From positions 6,269 to 70,268 of the forward strand of contig JAJDHH010000003.1 of NCBI GenBank assembly GCA_030266105.1: a DNA stretch of 64,000 bases, in the 5' to 3' direction. The position numbers were made by a program, and so were the translations under genes. Origin of the DNA: Eubacteriales bacterium OttesenSCG-928-K08. Lineage in GTDB: Bacteria > Bacillota > Clostridia > Christensenellales > CAG-138. The notes under the pieces are model-generated. The model saw only the letters and a program-made list of their open reading frames with translations. It was not told the origin of the DNA and ran no database searches. The stretch's first letter is position 1, and each line of letters opens with the position of its first letter. Shown piece after piece: positions 16,053 through 61,443 of this stretch.

Positions 16053-16120
16053 TTTATTCGTGCAACAAAAGTGCGAGTTTAGAGTTGCGCGGGCAAGCGT
16101 AAAACCGTATACTGTTTTTA

Positions 16121-16238
16121 GCAGAGTAAGCTGCATGCGTAAGCCATTTTAATGGCTTGGGCCGCACGGGGATGGGAAGTTGCCCCGGCGGGAAGAGGCA
16201 AGTGTCTTTTGCCCACGATGTGCTGCTGCGTCCGCTGC
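16121..16238 (+). ncRNA. THF (tetrahydrofolate) riboswitch
   Basis: GCAGAGTAAG...GCGT, CGGGGATGGGAAGTTGCCCCG, ...CGTCCGCTGC match the THF aptamer; followed by a terminator-like GGGCGTTATTTTTTT; upstream of folT. Confidence 0.88.
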
Positions 16239-16347
16239 GCAATACGCCCTTGGCTGATTATGGTGCACTTTTAAAGTGCATGGCTTTAGGCATTTGCGCC
16301 CAACAATTCCCGGGCGTTATTTTTTTGCCGCCCGGATGGGAGGCGAC

Positions 16348-49045: not shown

Positions 49046-50890
49046 TTATTTTATGCCAAGCTCTTCTGCCGTAAAGGTGCGGCCATATACGAGAGTATAA
49101 TATGCGTCCACATCCGCCATAAGCTCGTCTTTGGTGTATAGCTCCGGGTGCAGGTTGTTCGTTGCCCAGCAGACGCCCAGGCAGCATGATGCTGTCGGAT
49201 AATCCCATGGCTCCAGCGCAGAGGGGAATTGATACACCGCTTTGTTTTTGACGGCATTTGTTGCAGTCCAGCCCGCATCGTTGAGTATATCGTCCACTGT
49301 GTAGTCGGCGTATGCGGGAATCCAGATTACATCCGGGTTCCAAACGATGATCTGCTCGAGATTGACCTCGGCAAACTCACCCTTTACATCAATGCCGGTA
49401 ACGGCGTTTTTGCCGCCTGCGGCTTCAATGATGTAGCTTTGAATCATCGCTTCGGGCGCAACGGTCAGCATGGAGCTGCCGCCAAGGAACATTACGCTTG
49501 GTTGCCTGCTCGCCTTTGAGGAGACTTCCTTGGCTTTTGTCACCTGATTATCGAAGAATTCACAGATTTCAGCCGCGCGCGCTTCCTCGCCCAACGCCTT
49601 CGCAACCAGTGTCAGCGAGTTTTTGATGGTGTCGAAGCTTTCCGTATTGGGCAGCGCAACAATGGCGGGCACACCCACTGCCTCGTATTGCTCCGCCTGA
49701 TCGGTGAAACGCTCGGGCAGTATCGCAAGGTCGGCGCCAATTGAGGCCACCGTTTCAAAGTTGATGTTTTTGCCCTTGCCAATGGAGGTCAGGCTATCAA
49801 AATTTTCGATGACATACTGGTATAGGCCATCCGCCATTTCCTTGTTGCCAAAGCCTGCAAGGTACTTCCCGCCTCCGCCAAGCACGATGGCGGTGTTCAT
49901 GGATGGGTTGTGTGTGCCAACCACCTTTGTGGCAGCACCGGGCAGCGTTACCGTGCGGCCAACAACGTCAGTCAGCGCAATTTCACCCGCCATGGTGAAG
50001 AAAAGCTGCTCGCCGTATTCAGCAACGCCATATGAGTCTATCAATTGCGTGGCTTTTTCGCCCTGCATCCATTCGATGAAGGCGTTTGCGCCATCGATGT
50101 TGGTGTCCGCCCATTTGTCGGGGGAGATTGCCAGCATGGAGTATGTGTTTTTCATCTCATCAGAACGCTCCAACAGCAGATTAAGCTGTGGGCGCATTTC
50201 ATGCGCGAGATAGGTGGCCTTGTCGCTAAGCACATATGCCTGCTCTTCGGCGGCCATTGTAATGCACGCGCCCATGCCCTGCCCGGCGGAAACATACCAG
50301 CTATCCTTTTCGGGGTTGGGTTCGATTTGCGCGGCAGCCCATATTTTGTTCTCCGCGTTGTGCGTGCCGCTGCTGTCGCCGCGGGAGATGAATGTAAACC
50401 CGCCTTCGGCAATGGCTTTAAACGCCTCGGTGGCGTTTGCAGCGCTTCCAACGCCTGCCGGATCGTCCGCCGGGCCAAGTATCACAAAATAGTTGTACAT
50501 GAAGGGAATACGCTCAGCCGCAAAGCCTTCCGATATGAATGTTTCCTCTGCGGATTTTGAGTGCACGAGCAGCGCGTCGGCATCGCCTGTGCGGCCTTTT
50601 TCAATCGCTGCGCCTGTGCCTGCGGATGTGATTTCAAGTTTGTATCCGGTGTCCGCCTCAAATTCCGGCTGCAGGTAGGGCAACAGGCCGGAGTCATTAA
50701 CGGATGTTGTTGTTGAAAGCCTTATGATTGGGTTGGCGGGCCCTTCGTCAGCCGGTTCAGGGCTGGGCGCCACATCAACAACGGGCGCTTCGGGTGTTGG
50801 ATCTGCTGATGGTTGTGTTGCAGGCGTGCATGCAACCATGCCAAGCACAAGCAACAACGCAAGAATAATAGTGAGTGGTCTGTTCTTCAT
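49046..50890 (-). CDS. tupA: Lipoprotein: TupA tungstate-binding domain fused to a helical-backbone (Peripla_BP_2) binding domain
   Basis: Lipobox MVAC; RLSTTTSVNDSGLL, GTG.A, SRGDSSGTH, GQGMG; from about aa 300 TDVVGRTVTLP, NFETV, NLEQIIVWNPDVI, AVKNK.VY. Confidence 0.88.
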   Translation of the reverse strand: MKNRPLTIILALLLVLGMVACTPATQPSADPTPEAPVVDVAPSPEPADEGPANPIIRLSTTTSVNDSGLLPYLQPEFEADTGYKLEITSAGTGAAIEKGRTGDADALLVHSKSAEETFISEGFAAERIPFMYNYFVILGPADDPAGVGSAANATEAFKAIAEGGFTFISRGDSSGTHNAENKIWAAAQIEPNPEKDSWYVSAGQGMGACITMAAEEQAYVLSDKATYLAHEMRPQLNLLLERSDEMKNTYSMLAISPDKWADTNIDGANAFIEWMQGEKATQLIDSYGVAEYGEQLFFTMAGEIALTDVVGRTVTLPGAATKVVGTHNPSMNTAIVLGGGGKYLAGFGNKEMADGLYQYVIENFDSLTSIGKGKNINFETVASIGADLAILPERFTDQAEQYEAVGVPAIVALPNTESFDTIKNSLTLVAKALGEEARAAEICEFFDNQVTKAKEVSSKASRQPSVMFLGGSSMLTVAPEAMIQSYIIEAAGGKNAVTGIDVKGEFAEVNLEQIIVWNPDVIWIPAYADYTVDDILNDAGWTATNAVKNKAVYQFPSALEPWDYPTASCCLGVCWATNNLHPELYTKDELMADVDAYYTLVYGRTFTAEELGIK

Positions 50891-50895
50891 TTGAG

Positions 50896-50996
50896 TTCTC
50901 TCCTTTTCAAATTGGGAGGCATTGCCGTTTCCAGCAATACCCTATCGTGGAAAATCCATGGCGCTAACGCTTTAGGATTGAACCATCGGAGTAGAA
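50896..50996 (-). ncRNA. Moco/Wco riboswitch, translational type
   Basis: Minus strand CTCCGA...CCTAA...CATGG...GGTATTGCTG-GAAA-CGGCAATGCC-TCCC...AAAGGAG; the P1 3' strand is the tupA RBS. Confidence 0.88.
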
Positions 50997-51178
50997 TTTG
51001 GATGCATCCTGTACAATGTTATAGCATTTTTTCAATATAATCAAGCTTCACATCACATTTTATAGACAACAAACTACAACATTTTTGTACTATACATAAT
51101 ATATGAAAAAATTGACCTAAAGCAAAAAAATGGTCATTTTGAGTGCGAATATAGCCGGTTTAGATAACAAACGGCAAA

Positions 51179-51210
51179 ATCATACCCGCCCTTTTAAGGC
51201 GGGTATGAAA
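51179..51210 (-). terminator. Terminator of the aor/bifurcating operon
   Basis: CATACCCGCC-CTTTTAA-GGCGGGTATG with T-rich tail on the minus strand. Confidence 0.7.
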
Positions 51211-51303: not shown

Positions 51304-52044
51304 TTATGTAGCGGAGTAAACATCGGCCATAACAAGCGCAAGCTGTTTTTTGCGGCAGGCATCACAAAGTGTGCTGGGCTCGGTGCCAGCTTTTTCTGCT
51401 GCAAAGTTGAGCTCCTCTTGCGTGCCCATTTGTGCGCCGCAGCTTGCGCAGTGAACAAGTGTGAACGTTTTTTCCCACACAGTGCGTGTGGTTTCATTCT
51501 CATGATATTCAATGGCCTTTGTGGGGCAAACACGTGCACAGCTGCCGCAGCCAATGCAGTCGGCAGGCGGTTCATTAAAAGGCGGAGCAATTTCTTTTGT
51601 GATGCCACGGTTTACCGTGGCGATTGCCCCTGCGCCCAATGTGCTGCATGCGCGCACGCATAAGCCGCAAATTATGCACTTACCATCTTTTTCATTTAGC
51701 TTGTCAAGTGCGGGGGCGCTATAGGCCTTGCATAGTGCCGCGATGATTTCGCTTTGTGGCGCGCGCTTTTGGAGCAGCCTGAGTATTATACCACGCTGCT
51801 GTTTGATTTTTTCATTGTTGGTGTGCACCTCGCATTCGTTCAAAACGGGATAAATGCACGACACCACGGTTTTGCTCCAACCACGCTCAACAACCTCCAC
51901 AATACACACACGGCAGCAGCCCTGGCCTAATAACCCTTCGTGGTTGCAGAGCGTGGGAATATATATGCCGTTGCGCCTGGCAACTTCCAATAAAAACTCA
52001 CCCGGTTCACATGTGCAGCTTTTTCCATCTATCACGATATTCAT
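51304..52044 (-). CDS. BfuA/HydA-like FeS subunit without catalytic H-cluster
   Basis: IPTLC...G.CRVCIVE...SC 2Fe-2S; KCIICGLCVRAC, CIGCGSCARVCP; C-terminal CxxC..CxxC. Confidence 0.85.
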   Translation of the reverse strand: MNIVIDGKSCTCEPGEFLLEVARRNGIYIPTLCNHEGLLGQGCCRVCIVEVVERGWSKTVVSCIYPVLNECEVHTNNEKIKQQRGIILRLLQKRAPQSEIIAALCKAYSAPALDKLNEKDGKCIICGLCVRACSTLGAGAIATVNRGITKEIAPPFNEPPADCIGCGSCARVCPTKAIEYHENETTRTVWEKTFTLVHCASCGAQMGTQEELNFAAEKAGTEPSTLCDACRKKQLALVMADVYSAT

Positions 52045-53843
52045 TTTTGAGCCCTCCCCTGTGCCAGAATGGCCTCAAAGCGGCAGGCTTGCCGGCAGCT
52101 TCCGCACGCTATGCAGCTGCGTTGGTCAATTTCATAAGCTTGCCCTTTTTCGCCGCGAATGGCATTAACCGGGCAATTTTTCTTGCATAAGCCGCAGCTT
52201 TTGCATTTGTTTTTTTCAATAACAAATGTGGTGAGCTTTGAGCAAACACCCGCAGGGCAGTATTTGTTATGTATGTGTGCCTCATATTCATCGCGGAAGT
52301 ATTTTAGCGTGGTTAACACAGGATTTGGCGCGGATTTACCAAGCGCGCATAGCGAGCTTTCCGCAATTGTTTGGCAGAGCTGCTCCAGCAGCTCCAAATC
52401 GCCATCTTGGCCACGGCCTTCGCATATTCCGGTCAAAATATCCAGCATGTGCCTAAGCCCTTCGCGGCAGGGTGTGCATTTCCCGCAGCTTTCCTCTGTG
52501 AGGAATTTTACATAATAGCGCGCTACTTCAACCATGCAATCCCTGTCGTCCATCACGATCATGCCGCCAGAACCCATCATCGCGCCATATTGTGTCAAGG
52601 TGTCAAAGTCAACAGGTAAATCGAGCATGGCGCTGGGGATGCAGCCGCCGGAAGGCCCACCAGTTTGCACGGCTTTAAAGGGCCGGTCATCTATTATTCC
52701 GCCGCCAATGTCAAAAATCAGGTGGCGGAGGGTGGCGCCCATTTGCACTTCGACAAGTCCTGTGCGTTTAACCTTGCCAACCAGCGCAAACACCTTTGTT
52801 CCGCTGCTTGTTTTTGTGCCAAGCGTTGCATACAAAGGGCCGCCATCGCGTATGATGACGGGAATGTTGGCGAAAGTTTCAACATTGTTTAGCACTGTGG
52901 GGCAATCCCACAGGCCGCGCTGAACTGAACGGATATATTTTGCGCGGGGTTCGCCCACACGCCCTTCAATCGAGGCCATTAGTGCGGTGCTTTCGCCGCA
53001 AACAAATGCGCCGCCCCCGCGAACAACCGAGAGATTTAAAGCCTTGCCGCTGCCCATGATGTTTTTGCCCAGGAAACCAAGCTCAAGCGCGGACGCTAAC
53101 GCAGCATTTACATTTTTGAGTGCGAGGCCATATTCATCCCGAATGTAGAGGAAACCTTCGGTCGCGCCTATTGCCAGCGCACAGATTGCCATGCCCTCAA
53201 TCACGCTATGCGGGTCGCCTTCCAGTATGGATCGATCCATAAACGCACCGGGGTCGCCTTCGTCGCCATTGCACACAACATATTTGGGGAACACATCGTA
53301 TCCGGCGGCGGTTCTCCATTTGCGGCCTGTGGGAAAGCCCGCGCCGCCCCGGCCGCGAAGGCCGGAAAGCTCAACCTGCTCTATAATTTCACTGCCTGAC
53401 ATGTTGAGCGCTTTTGTAAGCGCTTCATATCCGCCCCTGGAAATGTAATCCTCAATGTTTCCAGGATCAATTTCGCCAATGTTGCGCAGCGCAATCTTAT
53501 ATTGTGGCTTGTAGAATGGGTTTTCTAGCTTGCTTTTTATGCGTTCGCCATTTTCGTTTTTGTAGAGCAGGCGCTCAACAACTTTGTTTTCCTGCAGCGC
53601 GCTTAATATATCCTGCGCATCATGAGGCTTGACTTTATAGTAAGAAATATCGTCCGGCAATATTTGAACGATTGGGCCATTCTCGCAAAATCCGTTGCAG
53701 CCCGTGCGCTTAATGTGCGCCTTAACCTCAATTTGCCCCATTACGCCCATCTTGTTTATGGCATTTTCAAGCGCCTGAACAACCTGTTCACTTCCGTTTG
53801 CCAGGCAGCCGGTTCCGCAGCATACTAATAGGGTGCGCTTCAT
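52041..53843 (-). CDS. BfuB/HydB (NuoF-like) FMN/NAD subunit
   Basis: N-terminal thioredoxin-like 2Fe-2S, GRGGAGFPTG, NGDEGDPGAFMD, GGPSGG, ESCGKCTPCREG, H....CPAGVC, 2x[4Fe-4S]. Confidence 0.93.
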   Translation of the reverse strand: MKRTLLVCCGTGCLANGSEQVVQALENAINKMGVMGQIEVKAHIKRTGCNGFCENGPIVQILPDDISYYKVKPHDAQDILSALQENKVVERLLYKNENGERIKSKLENPFYKPQYKIALRNIGEIDPGNIEDYISRGGYEALTKALNMSGSEIIEQVELSGLRGRGGAGFPTGRKWRTAAGYDVFPKYVVCNGDEGDPGAFMDRSILEGDPHSVIEGMAICALAIGATEGFLYIRDEYGLALKNVNAALASALELGFLGKNIMGSGKALNLSVVRGGGAFVCGESTALMASIEGRVGEPRAKYIRSVQRGLWDCPTVLNNVETFANIPVIIRDGGPLYATLGTKTSSGTKVFALVGKVKRTGLVEVQMGATLRHLIFDIGGGIIDDRPFKAVQTGGPSGGCIPSAMLDLPVDFDTLTQYGAMMGSGGMIVMDDRDCMVEVARYYVKFLTEESCGKCTPCREGLRHMLDILTGICEGRGQDGDLELLEQLCQTIAESSLCALGKSAPNPVLTTLKYFRDEYEAHIHNKYCPAGVCSKLTTFVIEKNKCKSCGLCKKNCPVNAIRGEKGQAYEIDQRSCIACGSCRQACRFEAILAQGRAQK

Positions 53844-54301
53844 GGTGTCACCTCCCTGTATGCGTCAATGATCTCTGGCAGCTTTTCAAGTGTGACCTTG
53901 CTGTAATAGGTTTCATCCACAACCATCACAGGCGCAATCGCACATGAACCCAGGCAGTTAACAAGCTCCAACGAAAAAAGGCCATCCTGGCTTGTTTCGC
54001 CCGGAGCTATGCCAAGCAGGCGTTCAATTCCGTCAATAAGCTGGTTTGCGCCCCGTATGTGGCAGGCCGTACCATCACAAAGCTTAATTATGTGCTTACC
54101 CTTTGCATCCAGGCTAAGCGCCTTATAGAAGGTTGCCATGGAGTAAAGTTGAGCGGTTTTGCAACCGATATGCTGGGCTAGCAGCTCAATCCCCTCGCGT
54201 GGCACATGCTTAAACTGGCGCTGCATGTCCTGCATGGCAGCAAGCGCATAACGCAGCTCTTTTGGGTATTTTGTAATGAGGGAAAGAATTTCTTCTGTCA
54301 A
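53840..54301 (-). CDS. BfuC/HydC (NuoE-like) 2Fe-2S subunit
   Basis: ATFY, CDGTACH, NCLGSCAIAP; TTG start. Confidence 0.92.
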   Translation of the reverse strand: MTEEILSLITKYPKELRYALAAMQDMQRQFKHVPREGIELLAQHIGCKTAQLYSMATFYKALSLDAKGKHIIKLCDGTACHIRGANQLIDGIERLLGIAPGETSQDGLFSLELVNCLGSCAIAPVMVVDETYYSKVTLEKLPEIIDAYREVTP

Positions 54302-54336
54302 TCTGATTCCACCCTTCGTTTGCGTTTAAAGTTTGT

Positions 54337-54609
54337 TTATCCTCCAGCAACCAGCGGGAATACAGCAACGACATTTTGCTCACTGAGCGTAGTTGCCACT
54401 CCATTAAGGTGCACAATATGGCGCCCATTAACAAGCACGATTGCGTCAGGCCCCAGCGCTTGCCTGTCCTGCGTGAGCAGTTTTTCGTAAAACGCGGGGA
54501 ATTTTTCGCAAAGCTCAATTAAAAGCGCCAACACATCCTTTGGGGGAGCTATGTTCATCTGCGCGCATTTTGTGATTTCCCGGTAGGTTGCAAAAAACTT
54601 CACAGTCAT
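54337..54609 (-). CDS. MoaD/ThiS family sulfur carrier
   Basis: VKFFAT.R, VLVNGR, FPLVAGG. Confidence 0.9.
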   Translation of the reverse strand: MTVKFFATYREITKCAQMNIAPPKDVLALLIELCEKFPAFYEKLLTQDRQALGPDAIVLVNGRHIVHLNGVATTLSEQNVVAVFPLVAGG

Positions 54610-54666
54610 ATCAACATGTTAAACTGCCGCCACGCACAGCAGGCGCTATGCGTGGCGGTCTTTCTC

Positions 54667-56463
54667 CTATATGCTTAATTGTTCGAGCTTATCGGCGGTG
54701 GGTACGCCTTCCTTATCCCAGCCGCGCAAAGTGTAGTATTCCTCCAGCATTTCGTAAAGCTCCGCAACCTTGCCCTTTGCAGGGCCGCTTGGCAGCTTTT
54801 CACGCAGCAGGCGCGGCGGCAAAGTATCCTTCTCAACACCGGCGGCAATGTTAAAGCGCTTCTCCAGGTTCCAGCAGCGCTCGCCTTTGAGGAGAATTTC
54901 TTCATCCGTCTCATCTGAGCCTATCGCCTCGCGGTATTGCGCAGAAAGCTCAGGCAATCCAATGCCAAATGTTGTAAAAAGGCAAAGGCCCAAGCTATCC
55001 ACAAGCGCCGTCAGGTCTTGGAACAGCTTTAACAGGGCGGGCTTTCCTTCTGTTTCAAGCGGGTCGGTCTTGAGCGGAACGCCGAGAATTTCTGGCGATG
55101 TCAGGTAACCGCGCACGTGGCAGCCGCCACGGTTGCTTGTTGCATACTCAAGCGCCATGCCCTGGATGGCCCGGCCATCATAGGCGGGCATTTCCTGCTT
55201 TTTGACTGACATTGAAAGCTCGGGGTGCCCATATTTTTCTGCCAGACGGTAGGAACCCAAAGCGAGTATTTCACCAAAACCTTCGCCCTTGCCAACGGCC
55301 TCGGTGAGGTTTACGACTGCGTGCGCATCGCCAAACCGCAATGGGAAGCCGATATCTTCCTCAGGGATGGCGCCCATTTCAAAAAGCTCCATCGCACAGG
55401 CGATTGTTGCGCCAAGCGTAATGGGGTCCATGCCGTATTCATTGCACAGGAAGTTCGCCTTGCAGATTGCCGCAAGATCGTTCACGCCACAATCCGCCCC
55501 AAAGGACCAGCCTGCTTCATATTCAGGGCCTTCGCCAAAGGAGGCAAACGGGCCATCCGGCACGCGGGTCACACGGCCGCAGGCAATTGAGCAGCCAAAG
55601 CAGCCTTTGTTTTTAACGAGGTAAGTATCCGCGAGCCGTTCGCCGGAGGTATCGTCCGCCTTATCAAAAACTGCGCCGTCGCGCCAGTTGCGAAGCGGGA
55701 GCGCACCACTTTCGTTGATAACGTTGACCAGCACCTCCGTGCCAAGCGCAGCAAGGCCTGCGCCCGAAACCGGGTGAGCCTTGAGTTTAGCGCGCGCATC
55801 GGCCATCGCATCCATAAAGGGCTCGGGGCGCACAACGGTTACGGAGCCTGTGCCGCGCACAACGACTGCCTTGAGCTTTTTGCTGCCCATCACAGCGCCC
55901 AGGCCGCCACGGCCTGCAGCACGGTGCTTGTCGTTCATGACTCCGCTGTAAAGGCAGCCGCGCTCACCGGTTGGGCCAATGCAGGCCACACGGAAGGATG
56001 CGCCGCAGGTTTCGTTGAGCATATCGGTGGTTTCATAAACGGTTTTGCCCCAAAGCTCTTCGGCATCCCTAAGCTCCACAATATCGTTATGGATAAACAG
56101 ATAGACGGGTTTTTCGCTCTGGTTTTCGAATATGATTCCATCGTAGCCGGCATATTTTAGCTCGGGGCCAAAGTGCCCGCCGGAGTTTGCTGCGCCAATT
56201 GTGCCTGTTAGCGGCGCTTTGGCGACAACCTCGTAGCGCCCTGAGCAGGATGCGGCAGTGGCGGTCAGCGGCCCTGTCATAAATATTAATTTATTGTCGG
56301 GGCCAAGCGGATCCACATTGGGGTCAACTTCATCGCAAAAATATTTTGTGCCCAGTCCGCGTGCGCCTACATAATCGTTAGCCGCTTTCATGTTTAAGGG
56401 TTCTTTTTTAATTTCGCCCGTTGCCAGGTTTACACGAAGTAATTTTCCAATCCAGCCGCCCAT
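54667..56463 (-). CDS. aor: Aldehyde:ferredoxin oxidoreductase (true-AOR-like tungstoenzyme)
   Basis: [67 protein letters not shown]. Confidence 0.95.
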
Positions 56464-56465
56464 GA

Positions 56466-56939
56466 TTACGCCCCCTCTCCAAATACTTCTTTGAAGCTCT
56501 CGGCCACAGCTTTTTTCCTGTCCAAATCCTCCTGCGGCTCCACATATTCAATGGCTCCCCAGGGGCAGAATTTTGCGCACTTGGGGTCGCCATCGCACAA
56601 GTCGCACTTAAACACCTTGCGCGTAATAGGGGAGTAGCTGATGTTCCCAAGCGGGCAGGCATTTTGGCACATTTTGCAGACTATGCACTTTTGCGCATTC
56701 ATCACAACCGCGCCGTTTTCGTTCCTTGAGATCGCCCCCACAGGGCAAACCTTCAGGCAGGGCGCTTCATCGCATTGAAGGCACATGATGGGGATGGAAA
56801 CCGCGGCCTGCTCATAGTCCATCACAGTAACGGCGGAAAGACATGGGTTGAACTGTTCCGTGTGGCCAAACGAGCACACAAGCTCGCAGGTACGGCACCC
56901 TACGCATTTTTCTGGTTTGATGATCAGTTGCTTGCTCAT
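56466..56939 (-). CDS. 4x[4Fe-4S] small subunit (WorS/AorA, DmsB-like)
   Basis: [15 protein letters not shown]...PC..VCP, CIVCKMC...CP, KCDLC...P.C...CP. Confidence 0.9.
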
Positions 56940-57011
56940 TGTTCCTTTTCCCGCGAAAAACAACGCGGGAATCCACCTCCTTTTCTAAAATATGGCATTG
57001 GAAGGTTGAGG

Positions 57012-57051
57012 AAACGAAAACCCGCAGGAAGAAAAGACTTCTTCCTGCGGG
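57012..57051 (-). terminator. Leader terminator (riboswitch expression platform)
   Basis: Minus strand CCCGCAGGAAGAA-GTCTT-TTCTTCCTGCGGG-TTTTCGTTT. Confidence 0.85.
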
Positions 57052-57148
57052 CTCCTTTGCAAGAATGGCAGGCTGCAGAGTTTCCCCCGCAACCCATTGG
57101 TCGCAATGGCCGCCTGGGTCGATTGCGACTCGGAACGCTCCTCGCAGA
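57051..57148 (-). ncRNA. Wco/Tuco-type (P3-less Moco motif) riboswitch
   Basis: Minus strand TTCCGA-GTCGCAAT...ATTGCGAC-CAAT-GGGTTGCGGG-GGAAA-CTCTGCAGCC-TGCC...AAAGGAG; no P3 stem; upstream of a W-enzyme operon. Confidence 0.8.
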
Positions 57149-57426
57149 CTATAGTAAATAGTATACACTAAAGCTAAAAAAATGAAAGCTTTTCTTTCCA
57201 AAAATACGGTATATACTGCATAAAGAATCCCATTAAATCCGTGAGTGATCTGTACATTTTACGTGAATATAGTTAAAACTAAAGCCCAATATTATGAAAA
57301 GTCGTCCTCAAAAAAATCGCATTTTTCAAAATTGATGGGTGTGCGCCTCACCTTTTGAAGGCGATACATGCTATAATGACTTCGTATTGATTTGTAGTTA
57401 TCGTTATGTTTGGTGGGGTGCTCTAT

Positions 57427-58329
57427 ATGGAAAATAAATTTGATAAAAAAAGTTTTCTGCTGATATTGGGCGGGTATGTCTTTTGGGGCCTCCAGCCGCT
57501 TTACTGGAAGACAATTGGCGCAACTTCAGCGATGTTTAACCTTTCTTGCAGGATAATCTGGGCAATGATTTTTACTGTGGGCCTGCTTGCGGCAACAAAA
57601 CGTTTGCCTGAAATAAAGGCTCTGTTTAAAAACAAAGAAAAAATGAAATTTATTGTCCCCGCGGCGATACTTTTGCTGCTTGATTGGGGAGTGTTTATTT
57701 ATGCCGTGCAGGCCGGGCATGTGCTTGACACAAGCCTTGGCTATTACATGGGGCCGTTTGTGGTTTTTGCGCTTGGAATGCTTGTGTTTAAAGAAAAACC
57801 CGCGCCGCTAACGCTGGTGGCAATGGGTTTGGCTGTTGTTGGCGTTGCGGCAAGCGTGATTTATTATGGGCAATTCCCAATATTGGCGGTGGCTTTGGCG
57901 TTTTTGTTCAGCGTGTATGGTGCGCTTAAAAAGTTTGCGCAGGTCGATTCGCTTTTGAGCATTGCCGTTGAAACGATCATTATGGTTCCCTTTGCGCTTG
58001 CGTATCTAATTTTTGTGGGCACAGGCGAGCCGGGCGGCATGGGCGAGCTAAGCGTGGGATACCATTTGCTGCTCGTAGGCTCCGGCATTGTTACAGCGCT
58101 GCCGATGGTGCTTTATAGCCTAGGCGTACTCAAGCTTCCGTTTGTGATGCTGGGCTTTATGCAATACATCAGCCCTACGCTTAGCATGATATGCGGTTTG
58201 TTTTTGGGTGAGCAGATCACACCGGATAAATTGGTTACTTTTATTTTTATATGGGCAGGCCTCATTTTATATTCAATAACTGTTGTGAGGGAAGAAAAGA
58301 AAAAACGCCTGATGGCAAAAAACGAATGA
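57427..58329 (+). CDS. rarD: EamA/DMT transporter RarD
   Basis: YVFWG..PLYWK, SLGYY..P, YGALKK, LGFMQYISPT. Confidence 0.88.
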   Translation: MENKFDKKSFLLILGGYVFWGLQPLYWKTIGATSAMFNLSCRIIWAMIFTVGLLAATKRLPEIKALFKNKEKMKFIVPAAILLLLDWGVFIYAVQAGHVLDTSLGYYMGPFVVFALGMLVFKEKPAPLTLVAMGLAVVGVAASVIYYGQFPILAVALAFLFSVYGALKKFAQVDSLLSIAVETIIMVPFALAYLIFVGTGEPGGMGELSVGYHLLLVGSGIVTALPMVLYSLGVLKLPFVMLGFMQYISPTLSMICGLFLGEQITPDKLVTFIFIWAGLILYSITVVREEKKKRLMAKNE

Positions 58330-58503
58330 ACAAAACCTCATGGCATCTACTATGACGAGAATGTGAAAACAATGTATGTTCGTTAGCTTATAGCTTTATT
58401 TTGGCAGTCTTTCGTGTTAATATAAGGGCAACAAAACATGGTATTGTGTGCGGGGGCGTGCGCAATACCTTGCTTTTATATTTTGAGCAATGAGGGTAAT
58501 TTC

Positions 58504-61443
58504 GTGAAAATCGGATTGGACGTTGGCTCCACCACAATCAAAGCGGCGGTCTTGTCGGATGATAATCGCCTGCTGTTTTCAAAATATGAGCGCCATTTTA
58601 GCCAGATCAACACTAAAGCGGCGCAGTTGCTTGCCGAAATTCAGGCGCAGTTTTATGGTGCGCAGAATTTTCAGCTTTGCGTAAGCGGAAGCGCAGGCAT
58701 GGGGCTGGCGGAGCTTTGCGAAATCCCATTTGAGCAGGAAGTGTTTGCAACGCGCGTTTGCGCCAAACAATTTGCGCCGCAGGCTGATGTAATAATCGAA
58801 CTGGGTGGGGAGGACGCTAAGATACTCTTTTTAAGCGGACTTTCCGATGCACGCATGAATGGAAGCTGCGCGGGCGGCACGGGCGCATTCATTGACCAAA
58901 TGGCAACCCTTTTGAAGCTCACGCCTGAGCAGTTAAACGAAAAAGCAAAGGAACACGAAAAGATATACTCAATCGCCAGCAGGTGCGGCGTGTTTGCAAA
59001 GAGCGATATTCAGCCGCTGCTTAATCAGGGGGCGCGTGTGGAGGATATCTGCGCCTCTATATTGTATTGCGTGGTGAACCAAACGGTCGCCGGGCTTGCG
59101 CAGGGGAGACCCATTGAGGGCAATGTGATGTATTTGGGCGGGCCGCTCACGTTCATGAGCGAGCTGCGCCTGGCATTTGATAATGTGCTGCATAACACAG
59201 GCATTCTCCCGCAAAACAGCCTATATTTTGTTGCGTTGGGCGCAGCGCTGCAGGCGCGGGGCTACCATTCCCTTTCTGATATTCAGCTTCGCCTAACTAC
59301 CCGCCAAAAGAAATCTTCTTTTGCGCACACAAAGCCGTTCTTCGAAAGCCAACAGGCATATGAGCAGTTTGCTGCCCGCCACGCAGGCGCGCAGGTTTTA
59401 GAAAAATCGCTAAAGGATAGTTCAGGTAAAGCGCATTTAGGGATTGATGCAGGCTCCACAACGCTAAAGGCTGTTTTGATTGATGAGCAAGGCGATATTT
59501 TGTTTTCGTCCTATCGCTCTAACAGCGCAAACCCTGTGCCGCTAGTGAAAGAGATTTTGGAGCATATTTATGAAGAATGCCCGGATATTTTATTGTGCAG
59601 CGTAACGACAACCGGTTATGGCGAGCAACTGTGCCGCGAGGCTTTTAATGCGGATTACGGCGTGGTGGAAACGATGGCACATTTTGCCGCTGCCAAGCGT
59701 TTTCAACCGGATGTGGATTTTATAATCGATATTGGCGGGCAGGACATGAAGTGCTTTCAGGTGGAGGATGGCGCGATCAGCAATATATTCTTAAACGAAG
59801 CATGCTCATCCGGCTGCGGCAGCTTTTTGCAGACATTTGCTTCCGCGCTGGGGCAGGATATCGATAGCTTCGCAAAGCTTGGCCTGTTTGCCGATGCGCC
59901 TGTTGAGCTTGGCAGCCGCTGCACGGTTTTTATGAACAGCAGCGTTAAGCAGGCGCAAAAGGATGGAGCATCTATTGAGAACATTTCGGCGGGCCTTTCG
60001 TTAAGTGTTGTTAAAAACGCGCTTTATAAGGTGATCAGAGCTTCGGACCCATCGGAGCTTGGGCAAAATGTGGTTGTGCAGGGCGGCACTTTTTATAATG
60101 ATGCGGTTTTGCGCGCTTTTGAAAACGAAATGGGCATTGAGGTAACGCGGCCTTCCATTGCGGGCCTTATGGGCGCTTATGGCGCGGCGCTTTATGGCCG
60201 GGAACAATCATCAAAAGAGCACAGAAGTTCAGTGCTTAGTAAAGCTGAGCTCCACGATTTTTCGCATCGTGTGCAAACAACAAGGTGCAAACTGTGCACC
60301 AACCATTGTGAGCTTACTGTCAACCATTTTTCGGGCGGGCGAAGGTTTATCAGCGGCAACCGCTGCGATAGGCCGACAACTAACCGTAAAGCGGAGCAGA
60401 CACTTAACATTTATGAATATAAACTCCAACTGCTCGATCAATATAAGCCTGTTCCAGGGCCGAGGGGTAAGGTGGGCATTCCGCTGGGGCTTAACATGCT
60501 TGAGTTGCTTCCATTCTGGCACACTTTGCTAACCAGGCTTGGTTTTGAGATGCACATGAGCCCCAAATCCTCACGCGAACTGTACTTTGACGGCCAGCAA
60601 ACCATACCAAGCGATACCGTGTGTTACCCTGCCAAGCTTATGCATGGGCATATTCACGCGCTTTGCAGTATGGAAGGTATTGATACGATTTTTTACCCCT
60701 GCATGACCTACAATGTTGATGAAAAGCTGGGCGATAATCATTTTAACTGCCCCGTTGTTGCCTATTACCCCGAGGTGATCGATGCAAACTGCACGGCGCA
60801 GCTTGAGGGCAAAAAGTTCATTTATGATTATGTTGGCATACACCGCCCAAATGATTTTGTTGCGAACTTTACAACCGCGCTAACAAAATATTTTACGGGC
60901 ATAACCACCTCGGCGGTTGGGCGGGCAACGATTGCGGCCTACCGTGAGTATAGGGCGTACCTGAGGCGGGTGCGAAAAAGAGGCGAGCAGATTATCCAAA
61001 CCGCCCGTGAAAAAAAGAAACCTATAATAGTGCTTGCAGGAAGGCCCTACCATGTGGATAACGAAATCAACCATGGTATCGATCAGTTAATTGTTAGCCA
61101 GGGCGCGGCGGTAATCAGCGAGGATTGTGTAAGCCACCTTATGAATAAGGAAAATGTGCGCGTGTTGAACCAGTGGACATACCATGCACGCTTGTATGCC
61201 GCTGCGCGCTACATAATAAACGAGCCGGATATGAACCTTGTGCAGCTTGTTAGCTTTGGCTGCGGCCTTGACGCTGTGACGGCGGATGAGGTGCGTGAAA
61301 TATTGCAGCGAGGCAACAAGCTTTACACTCAGATTAAAATAGACGAAATTGCGAACCTTGGTGCGGTTAATATCCGGCTGAGGAGTCTTTTTGCGGCACT
61401 GGACGCGCAGGCAAAAAATAGCGCAAAAAAGGAGGCCATATGA
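58504..61443 (+). CDS. Double ASKHA CoA-enzyme activator (HgdC/BadFG-like) fused to DUF2229
   Basis: GLDVGSTT..ELGGEDAK..MN..CAGGTG..RCGVF; GIDAGSTT..DIGGQDMK..CSSGCG..RCTVF; C..C.NHC; TVCYPAK, SFGCGLD. Confidence 0.88.
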   Translation: MKIGLDVGSTTIKAAVLSDDNRLLFSKYERHFSQINTKAAQLLAEIQAQFYGAQNFQLCVSGSAGMGLAELCEIPFEQEVFATRVCAKQFAPQADVIIELGGEDAKILFLSGLSDARMNGSCAGGTGAFIDQMATLLKLTPEQLNEKAKEHEKIYSIASRCGVFAKSDIQPLLNQGARVEDICASILYCVVNQTVAGLAQGRPIEGNVMYLGGPLTFMSELRLAFDNVLHNTGILPQNSLYFVALGAALQARGYHSLSDIQLRLTTRQKKSSFAHTKPFFESQQAYEQFAARHAGAQVLEKSLKDSSGKAHLGIDAGSTTLKAVLIDEQGDILFSSYRSNSANPVPLVKEILEHIYEECPDILLCSVTTTGYGEQLCREAFNADYGVVETMAHFAAAKRFQPDVDFIIDIGGQDMKCFQVEDGAISNIFLNEACSSGCGSFLQTFASALGQDIDSFAKLGLFADAPVELGSRCTVFMNSSVKQAQKDGASIENISAGLSLSVVKNALYKVIRASDPSELGQNVVVQGGTFYNDAVLRAFENEMGIEVTRPSIAGLMGAYGAALYGREQSSKEHRSSVLSKAELHDFSHRVQTTRCKLCTNHCELTVNHFSGGRRFISGNRCDRPTTNRKAEQTLNIYEYKLQLLDQYKPVPGPRGKVGIPLGLNMLELLPFWHTLLTRLGFEMHMSPKSSRELYFDGQQTIPSDTVCYPAKLMHGHIHALCSMEGIDTIFYPCMTYNVDEKLGDNHFNCPVVAYYPEVIDANCTAQLEGKKFIYDYVGIHRPNDFVANFTTALTKYFTGITTSAVGRATIAAYREYRAYLRRVRKRGEQIIQTAREKKKPIIVLAGRPYHVDNEINHGIDQLIVSQGAAVISEDCVSHLMNKENVRVLNQWTYHARLYAAARYIINEPDMNLVQLVSFGCGLDAVTADEVREILQRGNKLYTQIKIDEIANLGAVNIRLRSLFAALDAQAKNSAKKEAI

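Follow-up and report, generated by a model that had tools for sequence, protein, structure and literature searches.

The wor operon and its leader

The window analysed here, a 64,000-nucleotide (nt) stretch of contig JAJDHH010000003.1 from Eubacteriales bacterium OttesenSCG-928-K08, carries on its minus strand the six-gene operon worSLXCBA, whose leader contains a genuine P3-less (tungsten-cofactor type) riboswitch of the molybdenum cofactor (Moco) family (Table 1). All components of a class IV bifurcating WorABCSL operon are present, namely WorS, WorL, the BfuABC-like WorA, WorB and WorC, and the MoaD-like WorX. The best solved relatives are 9mqx_D for WorL (4.7e-250) and 9mqx_A for WorA (2e-56), and the S-L-X-C-B-A arrangement corresponds to the gene order described as 'type 1' for bifurcating WORs (PMC13328260). 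WorS probably starts at ATG 56939, giving the N-terminus MSKQL that is also found in homologues.

The riboswitch is recognised by a cmscan match to RF01055, the Moco/Tuco (tungsten cofactor) family, at 57147-57034 on the minus strand, with 42.4 bits against a gathering score of 36 and an E-value of 9.8e-07. Model positions 1-135 are aligned in full and the same match recurs in a whole-genome search. The assembly holds only two copies of RF01055, both within the window, and the P3 columns are gaps in the alignments of both. The leader aptamer is therefore of the P3-less form, the lack of a P3 stem being the published definition of the Tuco subtype (PMC2408646), and its ligand is taken to be the tungsten cofactor. 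The core motifs CCGAG, the GAAA loop, CCUGCC and AAAGGAG are present in the alignment, P2, P4 and P5 are reproduced by a fold constrained to form P1, and the whole leader folds with a z-score of -5.0 relative to shuffled sequences. The aptamer ends in GCAAAGGAG, with GGAG at 57055-57052. Upstream, the only promoter cue is a candidate -10 box; TGTATACT stands at a similar distance upstream of P1 in the homologous leader L016, and the box would set the transcription start near 57154-57152. A promoter scan listed nothing in the leader region, this box included.

Table 1. Features of the worS leader, the wor operon and the second riboswitch of the window
Feature	Position	Strand	Basis or remark
Candidate -10 box TATACT	57160..57165	(-)	Read from sequence; same TGTATACT in homologue L016
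5' flank segment UCUGCGAGG, candidate antiterminator strand	57140..57148	(-)	Complementary to first 8 nt of terminator 5' arm
P0 5' strand GAGGAG	57138..57143	(-)	Pairs with 57013-57008; duplex -8.4 kcal/mol
Moco/Tuco aptamer, P3-less	57034..57147	(-)	cmscan; helices from P1-constrained fold
P1	GUUCC 57136-57132 with GGAGC 57055-57051	(-)	P1-constrained fold
P2	57129-57122 with 57107-57100	(-)	P1-constrained fold
P4, GAAA loop	57095-57085 with 57080-57070	(-)	P1-constrained fold
P5	57069-57068 with 57060-57059	(-)	P1-constrained fold
UUCUUGC, P5 region	57059..57065	(-)	Complementary to GCAGGAA 57048-57042 of terminator arm; candidate antiterminator of an OFF switch
Terminator hairpin, 13-bp stem	57021..57051	(-)	Sequence reading, folds
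Terminator 5' arm CCCGCAGGAAGAA	57051-57039	(-)	Sequence reading
Terminator loop GUCUU	57038-57034	(-)	Sequence reading
Terminator 3' arm UUCUUCCUGCGGG	57033-57021	(-)	Sequence reading
U-tract UUUUCGUUU	57012..57020	(-)	Sequence reading; 7/9 bases U
P0 3' strand UUCCUC	57008..57013	(-)	Flank-to-tail test; minimum free energy fold
Translation start region: AAGGAGGUG 56982-56974, 8-bp hairpin 56971-56964 with 56955-56948, ATG 56939	56937..56982	(-)	Sequence reading
worS-worL-worX-worC-worB-worA operon	51304..56939	(-)	Pfam, solved-structure relatives
worS, 4x[4Fe-4S] ferredoxin	56466-56939	(-)	Pfam Fer4
worL, tungsten aldehyde oxidoreductase	54667-56463	(-)	Pfam AFOR_N/AFOR_C
worX, ThiS/MoaD-like	54337-54609	(-)	Pfam ThiS
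worC, NuoE-like	53840-54301	(-)	Pfam 2Fe-2S_thioredx
worB, NuoF-like	52041-53843	(-)	Pfam Complex1_51K
worA, NuoG-N-terminal-like	51304-52044	(-)	Pfam Fer2_4
Sister P3-less Moco/Tuco riboswitch	50884..51003	(-)	RF01055, 61.1 bits

A terminator that abuts the aptamer

The expression platform is a predicted intrinsic terminator that starts at the base where P1 ends. C57051 is both the last base of P1 and the first base of the terminator, so no spacer separates the aptamer from the hairpin. By itself the hairpin is worth about -23 to -25 kcal/mol (-23.4 kcal/mol for the 13-bp stem). A simple terminator scanner run over the window did not list the 57051-57021 hairpin. The CCGCAG...CUGCGG pattern in the stem was considered as a protein operator and rejected; it was seen nowhere but at the terminator, and at least one match arises in 27 of 100 shuffles. 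Nothing like it was seen by eye at the promoter of the sister switch.

Much of the original prediction, made from the DNA letters alone, is borne out by these results. It had described a P3-less Moco-motif aptamer, which the gapped P3 columns of the 42.4-bit match support, and its direct passage into a 13-bp terminator, found here as the zero-linker hairpin 57051-57021 followed by the U-tract at 57020-57012. The six-gene operon rich in FeS proteins is confirmed by Pfam as worSLXCBA, and the positions given for P1, for TCTGCG (57148-57143) and for CGCAGG (57049-57044) are all correct.

Comparison across Moco and Tuco switches

The layout was compared across 80 pooled RF01055 hits: the two of the window, 16 from relatives, five from Eubacterium callanderi and 57 from the 21 matching genomes of a 150-genome class-level sample. 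P1 could not be located in one hit, and hits were called WOR-linked when WorS or WorL lay within 1.6 kb. Eleven of the 12 WOR-linked hits have an abutting hairpin and U-tract (eight by rule, three by fold); the exception, L017, lies upstream of a distant single-subunit AOR. Among the 67 non-WOR hits, a terminator follows 7-74 nt downstream in 46, the start codon lies at most 13 nt from P1 in 14, five have neither and two have an abutting hairpin. This last pair consists of L010, a classical strong antiterminator with pairing of the arm to the P1 3' strand (-12.2; free energies are in kcal/mol throughout), and L139, a doubtful AU-rich fold. Most of the non-WOR switches with spaced terminators show some complementarity between the P1 3' strand and the terminator arm, which lies between -6.3 and -8.7 in four OFF-type examples, the E. 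callanderi counterparts of fetABC1 and focA, L006 and L010, against a mean of -4.0 for the worS type. An abutting platform without an antiterminator is specific to WOR operons in this sample.

Known switches differ from this leader to varying degrees. The fetABC1 and focA Tuco switches of Eubacterium limosum and E. callanderi share the P3-less aptamer followed by an intrinsic terminator, but have that terminator 24-26 nt downstream, with a 5' arm able to pair with the P1 3' strand (-7.3 to -8.7). The E. coli moaA switch is of the same aptamer family and has P1 closure as its regulatory event (PMC2408646); however, it has P3, senses Moco and represses translation, whereas the leader studied here is P3-less, carries a terminator and precedes an enzyme that uses the cofactor. 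The leader of E. limosum wor1SLXABC agrees with this one in Rfam family, in lacking P3 and in the type of six-gene operon. In Eubacterium leaders a CCCG...CGGG hairpin likewise comes immediately after GCAAAGGAG, and the first gene encodes a WorS that is 73-76% identical. These leaders differ in the U-tract, which is poorer in two of three (CUUUGUG...) in place of the clean UUUU tail seen here, and in a 5' flank that does not pair with the terminator arm, tail or core, in place of the flank-to-arm helix of this locus.

The first gene behind each of ten non-WOR hits was assigned by Pfam, giving two NAD-dependent aldehyde dehydrogenases (behind L136 and L138), one Mo-type aldehyde/xanthine oxidoreductase (behind L111), two NuoE-like proteins, one Fe-hydrogenase/NuoG-like protein, a binding protein, a C_GCAxxG protein and an ArsR regulator, with no match for one. 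Spaced terminators are found at L136 and L111, and none was found at L138. The L136, L138 and L111 genes may code for alternative enzymes that are shut off by the cofactor, which fits a logic opposite to that of the WOR type.

The worS leader family and the outer helix P0

A larger set of WorS-linked leaders was assembled from a species genome collection (six), from the best 80 of 136 on metagenome contigs and from this locus, giving 87. The aptamer core was recognised by pattern in 41 of these (37 plus four of Eubacterium type); the other 46 have no core by regular expression, and some are cut at contig ends. Before counting, two duplicates were removed, as were L039, which contains N, and L035, L105 and L106, whose P1 5' strand was not located, leaving 35 unique leaders. 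GGAG is followed by the hairpin directly in 20 of the 35 and after one base in 13, making 33 in all, and 32 have at least five U in the 9-nt tail that follows the hairpin. In most leaders the base just outside P1 on the 5' side forms a G:C, A:U or G:U combination with the one that follows GGAG, and the latter, where it is also the first base of the hairpin, can pair either way.

The family also shares an outer helix, P0, formed between the 5' flank and the sequence beyond the terminator. Flank-to-tail pairing, measured over 31 leaders between the 17 nt before P1 and the sequence after the hairpin (U-tract included), averages -7.44 kcal/mol for cognate pairs versus -5.31 +/- 0.37 kcal/mol for permuted pairs. 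None of 1000 permutations reaches the cognate mean, and the paired sequences vary between lineages. At this locus P0 is present in the minimum free energy (MFE) fold of 57153-57000. In these models the mature leader looks like a three-way junction where P0, P1 and the terminator meet, as though a long closing stem had received the hairpin as an insertion in its 3' strand. As the 3' strand of P0 lies at or beyond the termination point, P0 would be unable to join the termination decision itself.

Other features of these leaders concern translation and copy number. AAGGAGGUG is a perfect Shine-Dalgarno (SD) sequence placed 26-53 nt upstream of the worS start codon, with a stable hairpin of variable sequence between the two. 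This split SD - hairpin - AUG layout is found in 16 of the 35 unique leaders, including this locus, L016, L020-L024, L030, L034, L037, L042, L043, L059 and L069, and leaves 11-15 nt unpaired in most of the leaders that carry it; the remaining 19 have an SD 5-14 nt from the start codon or no GGAGG. A leader peptide between AAGGAGGUG and the ATG was considered and rejected, since the frames are not kept between homologues. Two genomes of the class sample (L161, L162) have tandem P3-less aptamers before worS, each with an abutting hairpin and U-tract, which recalls the triple aptamer arrangement of Syntrophomonas wolfei described by Regulski et al. (2008; PMC2408646).

Published evidence on WOR-linked riboswitches

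The link between this riboswitch class and WOR genes is already in print. Regulski et al. (2008) describe P3-less RNAs that accompany tungsten-cofactor genes, some of them preceding terminators; in the passages searched, repression is suggested for enzyme genes and no ON switch is proposed, and their account reports no binding assay even for the type-example Moco RNA, owing to the instability of the ligand (PMC2408646). Putumbaka et al. (2025) place E. limosum wor1SLXABC behind an RF01055 element (PMC11725836), and Feng et al. (2025) repeat that WorABCSL is regulated by this riboswitch (PMC12318220). In E. limosum, Song et al. (2017) mapped the start site of a Moco RNA that precedes seven genes of a 'hydrogenase complex' (PMC5651825), a locus which may be the same operon as wor1. 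Literature searches for an activating Moco or Tuco switch, which included the review PMC10265488, found none, and ON wiring was not found in print in these searches.

Direction of control

We infer that the leader element is a transcriptional ON switch that operates kinetically, a reading held at about even odds (probability roughly 0.5). Without cofactor P1 would be weak and, at this locus, the 5' flank would pair with the P5 region of the aptamer; the terminator would then complete, possibly lengthened by pairing between AAAGGAG and the U-tract, and transcription would stop. With cofactor bound, P1 would be locked and the 5' flank freed, at this locus to pair with the first 8 nt of the terminator 5' arm, so that the terminator base could not close in time and RNA polymerase would read into the operon. 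Once polymerase has read through, the most stable state would be the three-way junction in which P0, the P1-closed aptamer and the terminator hairpin meet. A ligand-stabilised aptamer would act in three ways, freeing the flank for the arm (in this lineage), locking GGAG, which in folds can otherwise lengthen the hairpin by pairing with the U-tract, and setting a rigid helix at the hairpin base. All three effects would oppose terminator completion, which favours a kinetic ON switch; the steric effect and the role of AAAGGAG/U-tract pairing are proposals of this analysis. The ligand-free, terminator-blocking structure that an OFF switch would need was not found in conserved form among the 35 leaders.

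The pbuE adenine riboswitch is a transcriptional ON type in which the closing helix of the aptamer overlaps the terminator 5' arm. The logic proposed here, with a ligand-stabilised P1 competing with the terminator, resembles that of pbuE-type switches. These differ in having several P1 bases in common with the terminator, whereas here the overlap with the conserved P1 is 0-1 base, so that competition would rest on the abutment, on AAAGGAG/U-tract pairing and on the lineage-specific flank helix.

The flank-to-arm helix is significant at this locus only. The original prediction had noted that TCTGCG is complementary to CGCAGG, and the pairing proves longer than claimed: with GG 57141-57140 opposite CC 57051-57050 and A57142 bulged, it forms an 8-bp duplex of -11.6 kcal/mol, a value reached by 1.8% of 2000 shuffled flanks (-5.96 +/- 2.18). 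In nascent RNA up to the terminator loop the pair probabilities are 0.41-0.93, with ~0.9 for 57143-57147 with 57049-57045. Folds of this RNA give -43.1 for the consensus aptamer with a 4-bp P1 plus the flank/arm helix, -36.2 for the aptamer alone and -43.6 kcal/mol for the MFE. The metagenomic leader L042 alone has a homologous flank, UUGCGAGGG, which pairs with CCCGCAA; the one C:G to U:A change relative to this locus is compensatory in the flank/arm helix. The flank has a second partner, as UUCUUGC (57065-57059) also pairs with it in the ligand-free MFE fold. For the aptamer-only RNA without ligand, this flank/P5-region fold reaches -39.5 versus -36.2 for the aptamer fold and leaves the arm of the terminator unpaired. 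In the metagenome leader set flank-to-core pairing is above shuffles (0 of 300 shuffles) and is not above shuffles in the 67 non-WOR switches (0.935).

Several lines of evidence weigh against the ON reading. Only C57051 is common to the 5-bp P1 and the terminator, and the nearest-neighbour model permits P1 alongside a 12-bp terminator at -57.8 kcal/mol (overall MFE -68.0), compared with -41.8 and -43.1 kcal/mol for the proposed ON folds in their 6-bp and 8-bp versions. The state with P1 and terminator is thus ~15-16 kcal/mol more stable than the ON fold, and any ON effect would have to be kinetic. The predicted competition between aptamer closure and terminator stands in part: mutual exclusion would be the most coherent reading of the family-wide abutment, but the 5-bp P1 and the 12-bp terminator can coexist. 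At the locus itself, shuffling the terminator arm instead of the flank removes significance (0.11). Over 31 leaders flank-to-arm pairing equals that of permuted pairs (-3.58 vs -3.45, 0.31), and the closest genomic relative, L016, is without it. TCTGCG/CGCAGG is thus not a conserved extension of P1, with only L042 matching. A contiguous P1 extension from the 8-nt flank was tried and rejected (cognate -4.34, shuffled -3.37, swapped -3.74), and the 8-nt flank adjoining P1 at this locus pairs worse than its own shuffles (0.94). Flank-to-core pairing is likewise lineage-specific, not rising above shuffles in 11 genomic WOR leaders (0.375), and an 'anti-aptamer' helix between flank and core was dropped as a family feature, being significant in the metagenome set only. 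The leaders are also mutually related, so that all such counts overstate independence. The flank/arm pairing is real in this lineage, could act only kinetically and is not a family feature.

Other pairings of the arm were set aside. The terminator arm was compared with everything upstream in six leaders and did not exceed shuffled arms (0.11-0.997). The P4 5' strand UUGCGGG pairs with the arm at -12.6 and was rejected as an antiterminator on kinetic grounds, as P4 is a stable local hairpin, and because leader L103 alters the arm while keeping P4.

The main evidence against an ON switch is E. limosum wor1, the only tested homologue with the same aptamer-hairpin junction. Putumbaka et al. report that wor1 mRNA is the same at 6 nM and 100 nM tungsten by both RNA-seq and qRT-PCR. 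On lactate it rises ~8-fold regardless of tungsten limitation, while aldehyde-oxidising activity drops to below 10%, and from a structural model they conclude that wor1 is under translational control (PMC11725836). In the same cells fetABC1 and focA, which have terminator-type Tuco switches, rose under tungsten limitation, corresponding to OFF control (PMC11725836).

Alternative explanations

These data lead to the strongest alternative, in which the riboswitch does not set the transcript level at all. The hairpin would then be structural, or would attenuate constitutively and with leakage; control by cofactor, if any, would be translational, via the SD - hairpin - AUG region. The unchanged wor1 mRNA in cells where focA and fetABC1 responded speaks for it, as do the ribosome-binding-site sequestor and antisequestor structures described for E. 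limosum wor1 (PMC11725836), the thermodynamic compatibility of P1 and terminator, and the AAGGAGGUG - hairpin - AUG layout common to this leader and the Eubacterium leaders. Against it, an ordinary SD stands 5-9 nt before the start codon in 16 of the 35 leaders. No platform other than the terminator is visible in those leaders, and in the examples read only ~20-25 nt separate it from the SD. The Eubacterium leaders are also the weakest of the set; the tail starts CUUUG in L021 and L022, and flank-to-tail and flank-to-core pairings reach only -2 to -4. With the weakest tail and without flank pairings, a Eubacterium leader may not represent this locus. This alternative is on balance unlikely here, although more probable than the others.

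A classical OFF switch is a less probable arrangement still. Here UUCUUGC (57065-57059) would antiterminate in the ligand-free RNA by pairing with GCAGGAA (57048-57042), and the ligand would lock P5 and P1, free the arm and terminate transcription. This pairing gives a 7-bp hairpin of -6.8 kcal/mol that covers 7 of 13 arm bases and is the strongest of the 35 leaders, and every experimentally characterised Moco/Tuco switch in the accounts of PMC2408646 and PMC11725836 represses. Pairing of the P5 region to the arm is nonetheless not conserved (median -1.8; cognate -2.39 vs permuted -2.21, 0.18), and the antiterminator state, at -37.7, does not improve on the -36.2 of the aptamer alone and lies 20 kcal/mol above aptamer plus terminator. 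The layout is systematically unlike that of the OFF-type terminator switches of the same and related genomes, and there is no obvious rationale for repressing a tungsten enzyme when its cofactor is plentiful.

Least credible is the ON switch as first drawn, with the plain 6-bp P1 extension (57148-57143 with 57049-57044) as sole and sufficient competitor of the terminator: its pairs exist and are predicted to form in nascent RNA, but they add only -5.6 kcal/mol, are separated from P1 by a 6x1 internal loop, are absent from 33 of 34 other leaders and leave a 5-nt toehold for the 3' arm at the distal end of the 5' arm.

The sister switch and neighbouring features

The second riboswitch of the window has an SD (GGAG) within its P1 3' strand, 4 nt before the ATG at 50890, an arrangement like that of the repressing E. 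coli moaA switch (PMC2408646). By Pfam, the operon behind it encodes a fused tungstate/periplasmic binding protein, permeases, ATPases, MatE, XdhC and MoeA. A sister switch 6 kb away that shuts off uptake and biosynthesis had been predicted, and the RF01055 score, the SD in P1 and the gene content all point to such a role. The first gene of this operon (49046-50890, minus strand) encodes a 614-aa fusion of PBP_like_2 (tungstate/molybdate-type) and Peripla_BP_2 (iron-siderophore/cobalamin-type), and a FecCD permease gene comes next. About 100 nt past the worA stop codon, a hairpin with arms ATACCCGCC and GGCGGGTAT followed by GATTTTG (51175-51206, minus strand) is likely the end of the wor operon, in which case the sister switch would have its own promoter.

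Divergent from the promoter region of the worS leader lie genes for an EamA-family transporter (57406-58329, plus strand) and a 1001-aa BcrAD_BadFG/DUF2229 'CoA enzyme activase' (58438-61443, plus strand). Elsewhere in the window a tetrahydrofolate (THF) riboswitch match lies at 16120-16239 on the plus strand, with 37.2 bits against a threshold of 36.

Implications for tungsten cofactor supply

The leader element truly belongs to a known family, in a genomic context already published, and its platform is a WOR-specific variant that, from its layout, is most simply read as ON. Should the direction prove to be OFF, or should there be no effect, the locus would add one more member of that family in that context. 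The zero-linker layout and the covarying P0 provide concrete handles for mutational tests.

More tentatively, the Tuco riboswitches of WOR operons as a group could form a distinct ON variant, in which the terminator is inserted in the 3' strand of the closing helix, P0, P1 and the terminator form a junction, and the cofactor antiterminates, while tungstate uptake, cofactor insertion and cofactor-independent aldehyde dehydrogenases are all turned off by that ligand. Activation by the WOR-type platform would mean that a single genome uses one aptamer class for both directions of control. Together with an OFF-type sister switch on the transport/MoeA operon, enzyme synthesis would follow cofactor supply, and synthesis of the apo-enzyme would be matched to that supply without a protein regulator. 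This would amount to a protein-free supply-and-demand circuit for a metal cofactor, and would offer a testable explanation for the presence of a riboswitch before WOR operons in gut and anaerobic-digester bacteria.

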